Source of the DNA: a phage
NCBI GenBank assembly: GCA_027263115.1
Contig: GCA_027263115.1_3656.1
Strand: one strand, 5' to 3'
DNA: 64,000 bases
A model generated the notes under the pieces. It saw only the letters and a program-made list of their open reading frames with translations, was not told the origin of the DNA and searched no databases. The translations under genes and the position numbers were made by a program. Shown piece after piece: positions 54,660 through 58,338 of the stretch. The stretch's first letter is position 1. Each line of letters starts with the position of its first letter.

Positions 54660-55010
54660 ATGAAAGATGGGGATAAGCTGCTATATCTTAAAGTCCCCCT
54701 TGAAATACTATCTATGTCAAAAGTTTTGAATGACACAACTGGGGAGGTTGTTGTTCTTGACTTGTATGACAAGATTGTATACTGCTACCTGCACAACTGG
54801 TATAAGCTTGGAGGAAATTCCCGCTTCACACCAAGCACAAGGAAAATTGCAGCAGATGTTGGGATAAAGAAAACAAAAGCAGCAGCGTGCGTTAAAACTT
54901 TAGAATGTGCAGGAGTGGTTGAAACATCCACACAAGGGAGAGGTAAAAGATGCACATTTTCCAAAGTTTTGCCACCAGAAGAAGTTATTCGAATGTCAAC
55001 AACTGGTTAG
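54660..55010 (+). CDS. putative winged-helix DNA-binding protein
   Basis: 116 aa; SD AAGGAG; HTH-like TRKIAADVGIKKTKAAACVKTLECAGVVE; iteron array directly downstream. Confidence 0.5.
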   Translation: MKDGDKLLYLKVPLEILSMSKVLNDTTGEVVVLDLYDKIVYCYLHNWYKLGGNSRFTPSTRKIAADVGIKKTKAAACVKTLECAGVVETSTQGRGKRCTFSKVLPPEEVIRMSTTG

Positions 55011-55083
55011 ACCAGTAAAAACTTAAATATCTGTACTATAAGGGTTTGTATGTTTTATGTTCACCATGGAACAGAAACTATTA

Positions 55084-55167
55084 ACTGTCCGTGATACGGA
55101 CACCACTGTCCGTCACGCGGACACATCTGCCCGTAATACGGACACTAACTGTCCGTGATACGGACAC
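55084..55167. repeat. four tandem 21-bp palindromic iterons (core GTCCGTnAYRCGGACAC)
   Basis: Each unit carries GTCCG/CGGAC inverted half-sites; followed by AT-rich palindromic DNA. Confidence 0.75.
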
Positions 55168-55649
55168 ATAAAGAATATAACTAAAATAACTAAATAATAA
55201 AAAATAAAAGATCTAGTACTTATGGTACTAAGTACATATACTTAACTTATGTAGAATATACTAGATCCTAAGTACCATGTTTTAAATTTATTACTTTCTA
55301 TAGGTAGTGTCGGCCCTTCATTGGCACTCGCCTACGAGGGGCGAGATGCCGGGCCTCCATAGTGCACACATGCAGGTCTGTTAACATGTGTGGGAGCGAA
55401 GCGGCGCAGGCCAAAGGCCGAGCACTAATGTGGACCACCGACGAAAGCTTGCCAGCGCCGTAAGGAGTCGGTTGAGAGCCTCCCGCGCGAGTTTGGATAA
55501 AGTTTATGTGTGGAAACGGACAATGAGGCCCCTAAATCGCTCCACAGCCATATAAACTATACCAAGTAAGGCAATCGCACCAGTTTGATAGAAAAGCTCG
55601 TTACAAAGCGATACAGCGAGTTTTTCTATAACTTGAAGAGGAGGCAGCT

Positions 55650-56228
55650 ATGAGTCCACGCAAAGATGACCGTGAAAAGATTGCAAAACGTTATCAGAAT
55701 GAAGAACAGATGGAGAAAACTTTCAAGTGGAAGCCAGGTTTCCAGCGTAATCATTCTAACGCTCGTGATCGTAAGCATCCGGATAAGTGGTTAACACCGC
55801 CAAATGATGGCATGCAGGTTGGTGATGAGAAGGAGCTGTCACCTGGAAAAGATGGCAACTACATTCGCACTAAGGAAGCAGGTCCAAAGGATGACAGCTA
55901 TCTTGTAGATAAGGTTCTTGATGGTATTGATGTGGATGTTGACACTGCACGAAACCTTTTTCTTGGTTGGTATCGTACAGGGTTTTTCGACATCAAGGCT
56001 ATTCGTCGTGTTTGCGATATTAAAAAGTCTGCCTATGATGATGACTCTCTACATCGCACTCTGAGACAATACTCAGAGAGATACGGTCATCCAGTCATCA
56101 CTATTGACGATATTAACGAAGTGATGTATCATGCAGAGGTTGTTGCAGGTAGATTCGGTGATGCATATCTCGGTATTCTTTCTGCAAAAGATGAGGTAAT
56201 GTTAAATAAAATTTACTATGAACGCTGA
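55650..56228 (+). CDS. hypothetical protein
   Basis: 192 aa, SD GAAGAGGAGG. Confidence 0.65.
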   Translation: MSPRKDDREKIAKRYQNEEQMEKTFKWKPGFQRNHSNARDRKHPDKWLTPPNDGMQVGDEKELSPGKDGNYIRTKEAGPKDDSYLVDKVLDGIDVDVDTARNLFLGWYRTGFFDIKAIRRVCDIKKSAYDDDSLHRTLRQYSERYGHPVITIDDINEVMYHAEVVAGRFGDAYLGILSAKDEVMLNKIYYER

Positions 56229-56238
56229 GGAGCGCTTA

Positions 56239-56427
56239 ATGAACAACCCGGTAGCAAAGAACTGTAATAAGTTCAACAAGTCTGCAATTCACACTGACAG
56301 GAAAAAGAGCTGGTCTCCTGACATTGACGAGGAGCTTGAGAGTTACTTTGAAGACCTGGTCACTAATGCAGATGAGGTTGCGATTAAAGAATACGCAGAC
56401 AGGAAGGATAAGGCCGGAATCTGTTGA
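56239..56427 (+). CDS. hypothetical protein
   Basis: ATG after GAGGAG (track ORF 56218..56427 trimmed). Confidence 0.45.
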   Translation: MNNPVAKNCNKFNKSAIHTDRKKSWSPDIDEELESYFEDLVTNADEVAIKEYADRKDKAGIC

Positions 56428-56452
56428 CAAAAATAGTGTTACCTGATAAGAT
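56424..56452 (+). promoter_or_regulatory. promoter TTGACA-N17-TAAGAT
   Basis: Hexamers upstream of ORF 56504. Confidence 0.45.
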
Positions 56453-56503
56453 CTGCAATATGATGTGATGCAATTTTAACTTACGAGGTCTACAGGTAAT
56501 GCT

Positions 56504-56746
56504 ATGTTTAAGGTTAAGCTCGTTTTTCGTTCCATGAATGAGGATTATTTAGAAGATGAAGGTGAATTTCGTGCACTGGATGATGCAATAGATTTTGCCA
56601 ACGACTTAGCTTGTATGAATACAGGTTATGGGCTATGCTGTTGGGATGGTGGTGTTCAGATCGGTGATAGCAAGATCTTCTACTTCTACCCTGAGCCCGA
56701 TAACAAACAAATTAAGTATGTTTTATTTATTTGTGCTTTACAATGA
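56504..56746 (+). CDS. hypothetical protein
   Basis: 80 aa. Confidence 0.5.
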   Translation: MFKVKLVFRSMNEDYLEDEGEFRALDDAIDFANDLACMNTGYGLCCWDGGVQIGDSKIFYFYPEPDNKQIKYVLFICALQ

Positions 56747-57034
56747 GGTTGTTTTCGTGTATCATGATGAATATCCAATTTAAAGATGAATTTGATGGAT
56801 TTATCTCCGGATGCTTTGAAACAGGGTTCGGAGAAGACTGAGTTCCCCTTAGAGGGCTTGATAGTGCACCACACTTAAAATGGTAGGGGCAGCCAGCACA
56901 TGACGATGTGACCCCAGCCAACCTGTAATAAGGTCGAGCCAGAGCGCGGTAATGGGTATCTGGTAACCCACTTGTTGGGTCTTGCTGGTCCAGGACGCTG
57001 GGCAAGTCGCAGGGAATACCACCCTGCGGCGAAC

Positions 57035-57063
57035 TTGACAATCAGTATTTGCCGTGATAAAAT
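57035..57063 (+). promoter_or_regulatory. promoter TTGACA-N17-TAAAAT with extended -10 TG
   Basis: Upstream of ORF 57092. Confidence 0.5.
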
Positions 57064-57091
57064 CCACCTATCACGTGATAATGGAGGAAAC

Positions 57092-57430
57092 ATGGCGGAT
57101 ACAACTAAAAAGCGTCGCCGTAGAGGCAGACCTCTGAAAGAGGAGTCCAACGCCATTCAGCTAGAGAAGAACATTCTTGATATGAAGGAATCTTTTATAG
57201 CGATGGTTCCAGAAGCTCACAAAGTTTTAAGAGAGCTGATGTTGGACCCGAAAACCAAACAAAATATTCGTCAAAGCATTGCAGAGTATGTTCTTGATAA
57301 GGCAGACCGAATGCAGGAAGAATATGATGAGATGTTTGGTGAAGAGGAAGAGGTGGTAGTAGAAGAGGCTGAAAAACCAGCACCTTTTATGCCATTTACC
57401 ACAGAAATACAACCTGTTAGCAATAGCTAA
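57092..57430 (+). CDS. hypothetical protein with basic N-terminus and acidic C-terminus
   Basis: ATG after GGAGGAAAC (track ORF 56972 trimmed); KKRRRRGRPLKEE N-terminus. Confidence 0.55.
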   Translation: MADTTKKRRRRGRPLKEESNAIQLEKNILDMKESFIAMVPEAHKVLRELMLDPKTKQNIRQSIAEYVLDKADRMQEEYDEMFGEEEEVVVEEAEKPAPFMPFTTEIQPVSNS

Positions 57431-57526
57431 AATATTTTCTTGACAAACTTTGCTTAACAGTGTAATATTGTAAACATGGTCTCCCACCTTTTCTGGCGGC
57501 TAAGGTGTAAAAGAAAGCCACCCAGT

Positions 57527-57601
57527 GCCCTGTTAGCTTAGTGGATAAAGCAGCGGCCTTCTAAGCCGTTGACACTGGTTCGAGTCCAGTACGGGGTGCC
57601 A
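57527..57601 (+). tRNA. tRNA-Arg (anticodon TCT)
   Basis: Hand-folded cloverleaf: 7-bp acceptor, D-arm GCTT/AAGC, anticodon loop CTTCTAA, T-loop TTCGAGT, encoded CCA. Confidence 0.75.
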
Positions 57602-57605
57602 AATT

Positions 57606-57692
57606 GGGGAGTTATCCCGTAGAGGTAGCGGTGTAGACTGTAAATCTATTGTCATTGCGACTCGGGTGGTTCGACTCCACCACTCCCCACCA
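57606..57692 (+). tRNA. tRNA-Tyr (anticodon GTA), long variable arm
   Basis: Acceptor GGGGAGT/ACTCCCC, anticodon loop CTGTAAA, T-loop TTCGACT, CCA; 87 nt. Confidence 0.65.
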
Positions 57693-57805
57693 AATTTATA
57701 TTTTAGATGCATAAATAATACAGATAATGGCATTGATATTTATCGTCGTTTATACTAGTCACTAACTGCTCGAAAATCAGTGTCATTATCAGTATAATTT
57801 ACAAA

Positions 57806-57896
57806 GGAGGGTAGGGAGCAATGGTGCTCAAGCGGTCTTGAAAACCGTCCCATTGAGGATGACTCGATGATGGTTCGATTCCATTACTCTCCGCCA
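57806..57896 (+). tRNA. tRNA-Ser (anticodon TGA), long variable arm
   Basis: Acceptor GGAGGGT/ACTCTCC, anticodon loop CTTGAAA, T-loop TTCGATT, CCA; 91 nt. Confidence 0.65.
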
Positions 57897-57994
57897 CATT
57901 GTTGACCTTGTAATTAAGCGAAAGCCGGAAGCAGAACCGGATTATCAAATGTTACAGTCGTCATCGCCGACTAGCAACATGGTCAACATACTGA

Positions 57995-58093
57995 GCTAGG
58001 TAAGCCCTTTGGCAAGGGCGAGGATTTTTAATCCTGAAAATAGACGAGGTAGTCGTTGAATACATAGATGGTTCGATTCCATCACCTAGCACC
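57995..58093 (+). tRNA. atypical tRNA-like element (possible tRNA-Lys TTT with about 25-nt insertion, or pseudo-tRNA)
   Basis: Perfect 7-bp acceptor GCTAGGT/ACCTAGC, canonical T-arm GATGG-TTCGATT-CCATC, D-arm GCCC/GGGC, TTT-containing loop; about 99 nt; no encoded CCA. Confidence 0.35.
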
Positions 58094-58098
58094 TTTTT

Positions 58099-58174
58099 GC
58101 TGATGTAGCACAATTGGTAGTGCAATTGATTTGTAATCAATAGGTTGCAGGTTCAAGTCCTGCCATCAGCACCA
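58099..58174 (+). tRNA. tRNA-Thr (anticodon TGT)
   Basis: Acceptor GCTGATG/CATCAGC, D-arm GCAC/GTGC, anticodon loop TTTGTAA, T-loop TTCAAGT, CCA. Confidence 0.75.
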
Positions 58175-58175
58175 T

Positions 58176-58250
58176 GGCCCTGTAGCTGGAAGGTTCAAGC
58201 AAGCGACTCATAATCGCCAGACGGTGGTTCAATTCCACCCAGGGCCACCA
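58176..58250 (+). tRNA. tRNA-Met or tRNA-Ile2 (anticodon CAT), elongator-type
   Basis: Acceptor GGCCCTG/CAGGGCC with paired 1-72, anticodon loop CTCATAA, T-loop TTCAATT, CCA. Confidence 0.65.
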
Positions 58251-58261
58251 AATAGTAGATA

Positions 58262-58338
58262 CTCCGCGTAGCTCAGCTTGGTAGAGCGCCTGATTTGGGA
58301 TCAGGAGGTCGAGTGTTCGAATCACTCCGTGGAGACCA
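58262..58338 (+). tRNA. tRNA-Pro (anticodon TGG)
   Basis: C1-G72 acceptor, D-arm GCTC-AGCTTGGTAG-AGC, anticodon loop TTTGGGA, T-loop TTCGAAT, CCA. Confidence 0.75.

Follow-up and report, generated by a model that had tools for sequence, protein, structure and literature searches.

The window (the whole 64-kb stretch of phage DNA analysed here; 64,000 nucleotides (nt)) comes from an rV5-like coliphage of the genus Vequintavirus. It harbours an unannotated gap at 56747-57091, extending from the stop codon of an open reading frame (ORF) of 80 amino acids (aa; 56504-56746) to the start of a 112-aa ORF (57092-57430), ahead of a cluster of transfer RNA (tRNA) genes. About 1.1 kb around the element described below matches 119 phage records at 95-99.6% identity; in annotated relatives the gap is either devoid of genes or attributed, in its first part only (56731-56841), to a 36-aa hypothetical protein. 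Using a combination of methods (similarity and covariance-model searches, comparative alignments and RNA folding), we found that the plus strand of this gap encodes a conserved three-way-junction RNA of a family shared between phages, a conclusion which we hold with high confidence. This RNA family is absent from Rfam and unannotated in its carriers.

The gap and the structured RNA predicted in it

The features of the locus are as follows; P1 to P4 designate helices, and the sister lineage (S type) is an uncultured lineage related to Vequintavirus.

56737-56765, plus strand: candidate sigma-70-like promoter TTTACA-17-TATCAT (10/12; consensus scan only), overlapping the end of the upstream ORF
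56772-56843, plus strand: AT-rich leader, found in Vequintavirus only, with predicted hairpins at 56773-56800 and 56804-56834 (minimum free energy (MFE) fold, no comparative support)
56845-56875, plus strand: 5' module, common to the sister lineage, made of the hairpin CCCU/AGGG (56846-56856), GCUUGAUAGUGC and a mini-hairpin (56863-56875)
56886-56915, plus strand: P1, in which GGGG (56886-56889) pairs with CCCC (56912-56915) and encloses CACAU-GACG-AUGUG (56897-56910)
56917-56957, plus strand: core of the three-way junction (P3, P2 and P4), matched by the covariance model R1 with 69.5 bits at 56911-56964
56917-56920 with 56953 and 56955-56957, plus strand: P3, GCCA pairing with U56953 and GGU, G56954 being bulged
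56921-56924 with 56931-56934, plus strand: P2, closed by the hexaloop GUAAUA (56925-56930)
56935-56939 with 56944-56948, plus strand: P4, with A56937 opposite G56946 and the tetraloop CAGA (56940-56943)
56949-56952, plus strand: junction strand GUAA
56967-57027, plus strand: three 3' hairpins (MFE fold), namely CCC/GGG (56967-56979), CUUGC..CCAG-GACG-CUGG..GCAAG (56981-57006) and GCAGGG/CCCUGC (57009-57027)
57035-57063, plus strand: candidate promoter TTGACA-17-TAAAAT with an upstream TG (11/12; consensus scan), the 3' limit of the element
57092-57430, plus strand: 112-aa ORF of the phrog_3330 family with an N-terminal KKRRRRGRP motif, given for context
57527-58338, plus strand: seven tRNA genes (ARAGORN and the Rfam tRNA model), on the same strand as the element, beginning 563 nt 3' of its core

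From the promoter at 56737-56765, transcription is inferred to start near 56772. The AT-rich leader is missing from the sister lineage, whose RNA begins at the 5' module, and this module is nearly identical across 12 R- and S-type sequences. The first two 3' hairpins have counterparts of altered sequence in the sister lineage, and the first one is deleted in L110. No U-tract typical of an intrinsic terminator was found after any of the three 3' hairpins. Altogether, the conserved part of the RNA spans 41-54 nt (the junction itself being 41 nt), and the whole RNA about 110-260 nt.

The original prediction placed here, at 56760-57034, a GC-rich and ORF-free segment lying between a gene end and a promoter at 57035, upstream of the tRNA cluster, and regarded it as a candidate structured RNA. 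Its position is borne out by the stop of the 80-aa ORF at 56746, the near-consensus promoter at 57035-57063 and the tRNA genes beginning at 57527. The GC richness is limited to the 3' two thirds of the gap: it holds for 56844-57034 (GC 0.565, as compared with 0.426 in the whole window and 0.394 at 56000-56746), but not for the first 84 nt of the predicted interval, 56760-56843, which are AT-rich (GC 0.357). As for the lack of ORFs, no gene is annotated beyond the small hypothetical ORF, whereas mechanical ORFs do exist, one of 30 aa on the plus strand and one of 104 aa on the minus strand (56727-57041). Insertions and deletions (indels) of 1 and 2 nt among relatives that are 95-99% identical shift the frame of the N-terminal third of the 104-aa ORF, which is also interrupted by stops in the sister lineage. 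All three minus frames are open, and the 104-aa ORF is regarded as an artefact of the purine-rich plus strand.

The view that no known RNA family could be recognised in the gap also held. Rfam 15 returned only tRNAs from the whole window at the gathering threshold, nothing over 56747-57091 when 55100-57600 was searched with E-values up to 10, and no family matching the motif at the homologous loci of other phages. Similarly, neither ARAGORN nor the tRNA covariance model found a tRNA cloverleaf over the element. Searches of the literature by literal sequence and by topic found no description of the element, the supplement of a catalogue of 10,006 candidate phage RNAs lying outside this comparison.

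Conservation and covariation of the three-way junction

The family core sequence ACCUGURRNAAGGUCGAGC-N6-GCGGUAA is present at 56921-56952 in the window. Two alignments were used: A1, a gap-free set of 51 distinct 54-nt segments, in which column n corresponds to window position 56910+n, and A3, a model-derived set of 84 matches (54 distinct sequences) fitted to P2 and P3 but not to P4. In these columns P3 is formed by 7-10 with 43 and 45-47, G44 being bulged, and three of its pairs are never broken, as follows.

P3 pair 8-46: CG 42, GC 10, AU 1, UG 1; four pair types, 100% paired
P3 pair 9-45: CG 44, UA 5, GC 3, AU 1, GU 1; five pair types, 100% paired
P3 pair 10-43: AU 31, CG 8, UA 8, UG 7; four pair types, 100% paired

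The strands of P3 are exchanged whole between lineages (GCC/GGU, GGC/GCC, CUGG/CCAG, GCA/UGU, GCACU/AGUGC and CCCU/AGGG). Over the full structure, 95.0% of the cells of A3 are paired, as compared with 85.1% in shuffled alignments; two-sided changes occur at six pairs, a number matched by none of 500 shuffles; and the covariation score is 0.280, as compared with 0.095 in shuffles (none of 500 reaching the observed value) and at most 0.048 when the partners are slid. Hence, base-pair covariation across 54 distinct homologues upholds the predicted plus-strand structured RNA, the structure of which is conserved in homologous regions. As an independent check, RNAalifold, run on 21 T4-like sequences with no structure supplied, predicted the same P3, P2 and P4. 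Run on the full-length R- and S-type sequences, where MAFFT misaligned P1, it was used for the flanking hairpins only.

P3 stacks on P2, which consists of ACCU/AGGU with a G-U-R-R-N-A hexaloop (variants of the loop are GUAAAA, GUAGAA, GUGAAA and AUAAUA). P4 consists of CG-A-GC/GY-G-CG with a C-N-N-A tetraloop, and is followed by GUAA. The stems of both P2 and P4 are nearly sequence-invariant among homologues, aside from an alternation of G-C and G-U at the pair 28-35 (G28-U35 in 36 sequences) and a compensated P2, GCCA/UGGU, in L124. P1, as read from the sequences, behaves in the opposite way: directly 5' of P3, every lineage has its own complementary stem, with at least ten different strand pairs (GGAAC/GUUCC, GGGAA/UUCCC, GGGAG/CUCCC, AAAGG/CCUUU, AAAGC/GCUUU, UGAAUG/CAUUCA, UGAGUG/CACUCA, UGUGUAU/AUACACA, UGAGG/CCUCA and GGAG/CUCC). 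The siphovirus and phAPEC8-like units have an extra outer helix, which covaries as well (GUUGUGAC/GUCACAAC versus GUUGUGAA/UUCACAAC). As the orientation is constant, and as the G-U pairs (28-35 and several in P3) would turn into A-C mismatches if the opposite strand were folded, the plus strand is the one that folds. The model R1 gave 69.5 bits (E 2e-18) to the window sequence, which is part of its own input, 43-77 bits to other members and at most 25 bits to non-members; it found one copy of the core in the window, the next best match having 15 bits.

Several other pairings were tried and rejected. For the closing helix, neither of two simple registers accounted for more than some of the data, and the version with the bulged G fits all sequences. 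Neither a UGGU/GCCA extension of P1 nor a CCAGA/UCUGG pairing is conserved. The stem offered as an example in the original prediction, GGGTATCTGGTAACCC, is indeed present at 56955-56970, but this local GGGU...ACCC hairpin is not conserved and has no comparative support, and its GGG belongs to P3. A G-quadruplex was dismissed on the ground that the GG tracts are not kept in L018, mimicry of the anticodon loop of tRNA-Tyr (CUGUAAA) is weakened by the GUG and AUA loop variants, and the likeness to P12 of ribonuclease P (RNase P), loop E of 5S ribosomal RNA (rRNA) and the D-arm of tRNA is at the level of words only, with no model match.

Phage carriers and genomic neighbourhood

A sensitive blastn search with a 281-nt interval matched 977 phage records. 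The 119 rV5-like genomes match this interval over its full length, whereas about 850 T4-like phages match only 45 nt of it (56914-56958) at 85-93% identity, and the flanks of this 45-nt match are unrelated between the two groups. A second blastn search, with a siphovirus copy as the query, showed that 980 of 50,697 phage records carry the core. Scanning IMG/VR and metagenomes for the pattern, and then searching with a covariance model, yielded further carriers, and the core is present in at least six groups of phages. Besides the rV5-like and T-even phages, the carriers and the positions of their motif are as follows.

Uncultured Vequintavirus sister lineage (S type; L036, L038, L042, L084, L095, L114 and L122): in R and S types alike, 500-560 nt before tRNA-Arg
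Subset of the phAPEC8-like phages (L091; phiWec188 and phiWec190): in L091, 122 nt after tRNA-Thr
46-kb Klebsiella and E. coli siphoviruses and 70-kb Pylas-like phages (L119-L125): in L119, L121, L123 and L125, 200-350 nt before tRNA genes
T4-like phages of a third type (L130, L155, L156, L161 and L191), in some of which two copies lie in tandem
Unclassified contigs of 75-96 kb (L116, L124, L150, L152, L190 and L222): in L116 and L124, between two tRNAs (filling the 111 nt between them in L116); in L150, 289 nt after tRNA-Pro; in L222, about 800 nt before tRNA-Met

Except in the T-even phages, the motif is invariably on the tRNA strand, within or beside the tRNA cluster (at most about 800 nt away), and in every case its orientation is that of the neighbouring genes and tRNAs. 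In T4-like phages, it sits on the transcribed strand in the short space that separates denV or an ip gene from the vs.8 downstream (in some, from regB or an ip gene instead); in T4 itself it is found at 64,852-64,905. In the S type (L122), 8 nt separate the end of a TTGACA-17-TATACT promoter with an upstream TG (11/12) from the first conserved hairpin, and another TTGACA promoter (687-715) directly follows the last hairpin, thereby delimiting a unit of about 170 nt between two near-consensus promoters. In the 46-kb siphoviruses, inverted repeats separate several structured units, among them the one with the motif. Together, the tRNA neighbours, the single copy per genome and the promoters of the sister lineage favour what may be a discrete small RNA gene.

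The motif seems to be confined to phages. No match to the element was found by blastn in 5,426 complete E. coli genomes. A pattern scan of bacterial genomes (596 Gb) gave 25 matches, as compared with about 35 expected by chance according to our own arithmetic, and R1 recognised none of the 25 as a member. The only match among plasmids, CP057073.1 (137.5 kb), is an rV5-like phage genome deposited as a plasmid. A similarity to the host or an antisense target was also considered, and the blastn search of the 5,426 E. coli genomes found nothing of the kind, short complementarity remaining possible.

Several observations were made along the way. Among the 119 rV5-like records, 18 are labelled "Campylobacter phage" (MG0656xx), although they are rV5-like coliphages by sequence. 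Tandem copies of the motif lie about 60 nt apart in some 172-178-kb T4-like phages (L161 9018-9183; L156 5089-5253), the second copy having a shortened P4 region, GGUCAGCCCGCGGCGGUAA. In T4 (NC_000866, 64,759-64,959, minus strand, corresponding to L069 3260-3460), the deposited vs.8 coding sequence (219 aa) begins at an ATG inside P1, whereas in RB14, JS98 and others vs.8 starts at the downstream ATGAGAACATTTTTAAC, after a purine-rich ribosome-binding site; judging from these sequences, the T4 vs.8 start is probably mis-annotated. The siphovirus arrays (L121 8250-9200, minus strand; also L119, L120, L123 and L125) lie upstream of tRNAs, and parts of them match 762 phage records, Felixounavirus included; an Rfam search of the array matched no unit. 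When compared with the boxA consensus, the sense copies of their inverted repeats (GUGCUCUUAUCG and GUGCUCUUUCCG) resemble boxA, and the layout of these arrays recalls that of rRNA operons.

Turning to the neighbours of the element in the window, the 112-aa ORF begins MADTTKKRRRRGRPLKEE, which is Arg-rich or AT-hook-like, and its C-terminal half is acidic. The tRNA at 57995-58093 is odd: ARAGORN makes it 99 nt long and reads four bases (atcc) as its anticodon, it scores 37.5 bits with the Rfam tRNA model, and relatives annotate it as tRNA-Lys or tRNA-OTHER. Upstream, the ORF at 54660-55010 matches PHROG 12838, 'replication initiation protein' (E 5e-80), with a helix-turn-helix domain; next come four or five iteron-like repeats ACTGTCCGTGATACGGACAC at about 55085-55165, then an AT-rich stretch (55170-55295), so that 54660-55295 looks like a replication-origin module. 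Directly after this stretch lies a second ORF-free block, 55296-55540 (GC 0.571), which occurs only in 119 Vequintavirus records (84-100% identity), with a hairpin-sized indel of 18-21 nt that is absent from the window. This block has no match to an Rfam family and is predicted to be highly structured (RNAalifold folding term of -84 kcal/mol for five sequences, with almost no covariation). It shares the word GGGCYU..AUAGUGCAC with the 5' module of the element, part of which also resembles the word GGGCCTCCATAGTGCAC at 55350-55368.

What the RNA might do

As the best overall explanation, we propose that 56772-57034 (plus strand) is a gene whose product, a small structured non-coding RNA, belongs to an uncatalogued family and has a junction that would bind a host factor; on the sequence data, we give this proposal as a whole about an even chance of being correct. 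The element would have its own promoter, from which the host RNA polymerase would transcribe it early and along with the phage tRNA cluster; where the motif lies between tRNAs or between inverted-repeat processing stems, the RNA would be released as a discrete stable species. Whether the product is indeed discrete and acts in trans seems to us evenly balanced. The functional surface would be the junction (P2, P4, the GUAA strand and the bulged G), because these parts are fixed in sequence while the surrounding helices vary. Since no long single-stranded stretch is conserved and the loops vary, the RNA would act by its shape rather than as an antisense, through binding to a protein met by all these enterobacterial phages. 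Sequence-specific recognition by a protein is suggested by the stems of P2 and P4, which are fixed, whereas those of riboswitches normally covary. The partner would more likely be from the host than from the phage, as no phage protein accompanies the motif; given the tRNA genes nearby, the candidate that appeals most is a protein handling tRNA or RNA, possibly an immune nuclease. A protein-binding or decoy mode, the partner of which is hypothetical, is put forward tentatively. That the junction is specifically a decoy or an inhibitor of a conserved enterobacterial RNA- or tRNA-handling protein (a tRNA-directed immune nuclease, a modification enzyme or a processing enzyme) is a doubtful possibility.

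The following observations weigh against the proposal. There is no terminator 3' of the element, so that a discrete 3' end would need processing. In the T-even phages, the motif is 6-8 kb away from the tRNAs and directly before the vs.8 ribosome-binding site, a position which would suit a role in cis. Given the near-invariance of P2 and P4, the case for their pairing is made by complementarity, by G-C/G-U changes on one side and by one or two sequences with compensation. The MFE of the window RNA is -69.2 kcal/mol, as compared with -56.3 kcal/mol when the junction is enforced, and P3 and P4 are not recovered from the window sequence alone; the pairings of the P3/P4 region that are thermodynamically favoured instead are not conserved among close relatives. 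The single-sequence fold z-scores are modest and alike on both strands (-2.05 for the plus strand and -1.80 for the minus strand). Single-sequence folding is thus not decisive; conservation and covariation are.

Among the alternatives, the element could act in cis on the processing or stability of long transcripts, untranslated or polycistronic, with its junction as a recognition site or a barrier for a host RNase (E, III or P), which would set RNA ends or shield the adjoining RNA. The missing terminator would fit with it, as would the motif that fills the space between two tRNAs in L116, its intercistronic position in T-even phages, and the 46-kb siphovirus unit, whose flanking inverted repeats could form long stems like those around rRNAs. 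We nevertheless consider it fairly unlikely: each cluster has a single copy instead of one for every tRNA, two short sequence-invariant stems exceed the need of a generic RNase site, and in the S lineage the element has its own promoter and another one directly after it, so that nothing downstream depends on it. A ligand-binding aptamer (riboswitch) controlling the downstream gene would account for the compact junction with its conserved nucleotides and variable outer helices, for the T4-like motif ending 30-60 nt before the vs.8 start, and for the P3 GGG of T4-like phages, which could alternatively pair with a conserved downstream GGCCC. It is rendered improbable by the variety of the downstream genes (the 112-aa ORF with its own promoter, vs.8, regB, internal head protein genes and tRNAs), by the fixed P2 and P4 and by the G-to-A change of L018 and L227, which falls on the bulged position of P3 and breaks the alternative pairing in L227; moreover, neither a terminator nor sequestration of a ribosome-binding site is evident.

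It is worth considering that the order promoter, RNA, Arg-rich small ORF and tRNAs parallels the pL-nutL-N layout of phage lambda. The element might then be a nut- or put-like antitermination signal for reading through the tRNA cluster, P2 being the equivalent of boxB and bound by the Arg-rich N-terminus of the 112-aa ORF, which starts with MADTTKKRRRRGRP and is conserved at the same position in the sister lineage; P2 reads CCU-GUAAAA-AGG in some members, and boxA-like words (GUGCUCUUAUCG) flank the units of the siphovirus arrays. Set against the boxA, boxB and put consensus sequences, the motif shares with lambda nut and HK022 put a promoter-proximal hairpin with a purine-rich GNRA-like loop, yet this loop has six bases instead of five and sits within a three-way junction, P2 is only loosely like boxB, and the window has no boxA-like word close to the element. 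In addition, the 112-aa ORF does not travel with the motif in the T4-like, phAPEC8-like or siphovirus members and is missing from most carriers; its family, phrog_3330, is without a known function or a Pfam match, its RGRP is equally an AT-hook DNA-binding motif, and both the ORF and the tRNAs have their own promoters, so that we regard this explanation as quite improbable. A self-cleaving ribozyme maturing the tRNA-cluster transcripts, in the manner of the hepatitis-delta-virus-like theta ribozymes, is very improbable. Small ribozymes adjoining phage tRNAs are documented (PMC10879173) and the core is compact and invariant, but no Rfam ribozyme model matches it with E-values up to 10, and it does not abut a tRNA 3' end, lying 563 nt upstream of the first tRNA in the window and 6 kb away in T4. 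Unlike the theta ribozymes, which are likewise compact RNAs (about 50 nt) tied to tRNA genes in Caudoviricetes but have a nested double pseudoknot and a cleavage site at the tRNA 3' end (PMC10879173), the motif is a plain unknotted three-way junction, usually hundreds of nt away from a tRNA. We think just as little of a DNA-level element (a recombination, homing or replication site) or of recently transferred DNA devoid of RNA function. The T-even copy adjoins the hypervariable ip/denV region, the presence among phAPEC8-like phages is patchy and the core is nearly identical between unrelated phages; however, the compensatory changes and the G-U tolerance in P1, P3 and P0 indicate a folded single strand, read from one strand, the orientation is always that of transcription, and the loops vary while the stems are kept, which implies time for drift. 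Finally, a small protein-coding gene, either the 104-aa minus-strand ORF or plus-strand ORFs of 30-36 aa, is almost certainly not the explanation. Such mechanical ORFs exist, and some records do list the 36-aa protein, but the minus ORF suffers from the frame-changing indels and sister-lineage stops described above and its frames are open only through the purine-rich plus strand, the plus-strand ORFs have no ribosome-binding site, and phages without any ORF across the core conserve it all the same.

Coming back to the proposed small RNA gene, phage tRNA clusters carry extra stable RNAs, and the RNAC and RNAD of T4 have remained without an assigned function for fifty years. The function of these RNAs (species 1 and 2) was still open in 2010 and 2022 (PMC3014915, PMC9697503), and according to the T4 review no riboswitch or trans-acting RNA had been functionally characterised in T4 (PMC3014915). 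Like the motif, RNAC and RNAD are small non-tRNA RNAs encoded with phage tRNA genes (they are processed from the cluster transcripts), and they are nearest in kind to it as extra structured RNAs of phage tRNA clusters; they differ from it by their tRNA-like 3' parts with CCA. R1 found no match in the T4 tRNA region (L117), where by eye there is a short word resemblance, and blastn hit T4 at the denV-vs.8 site only. As a side observation, rnaD-like sequences adjoin both tRNA genes and the motif (L091 about 1700-1640, minus strand; L121 about 8450-8425, minus strand), with the words ...GGGUCGCU..GUAAGUCGUC... and ...GGCGCACCA in phAPEC8-like and siphovirus contigs; from these words, RNAD-like RNAs seem to be more widespread than T4-like phages. 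The GUAAUA hairpin of 23S rRNA helices 42-44 is one arm of a three-way junction. This GTPase-associated centre shares with the motif the same hexaloop on a short hairpin, yet the order of the arms is reversed, the remaining sequence differs, the loop is variable in the motif and no rRNA model matches, so that the likeness, as with lambda boxB, is confined to the loop. GOLLD and ROOL are RNAs of 500-800 nt, listed in Rfam, the function of which is open. They resemble the motif as phage-associated structured RNAs often found beside tRNA genes (10.1101/2024.12.08.627333), and are distinguished from it by their fold, their size and their Rfam entries.

The original prediction, which proposed a phage small RNA, a processing leader or a ribozyme-like element, could not see that the element is common to T4-like and several other groups of phages. 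The context favours the first of these options, though the three are not fully separated. A covariance model is now provided for the new family, and annotations can be corrected accordingly, at the T4 vs.8 start, which lies inside the element, and at the small hypothetical ORFs called over the element in rV5-like genomes. As the motif is common to T4, RB69, rV5, phAPEC8-like phages, several Klebsiella phages and carriers in the BASEL collection, its role is testable in the best model systems. That unrelated phages of one host group keep its sequence invariant points to a molecular target which they have in common, and the identity of this target would show the purpose of the non-tRNA RNAs in phage tRNA clusters. 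If the decoy proposal were true, the tRNA clusters of many unrelated coliphages, and also T4 itself, would encode an RNA-based factor of host takeover or counter-defence.

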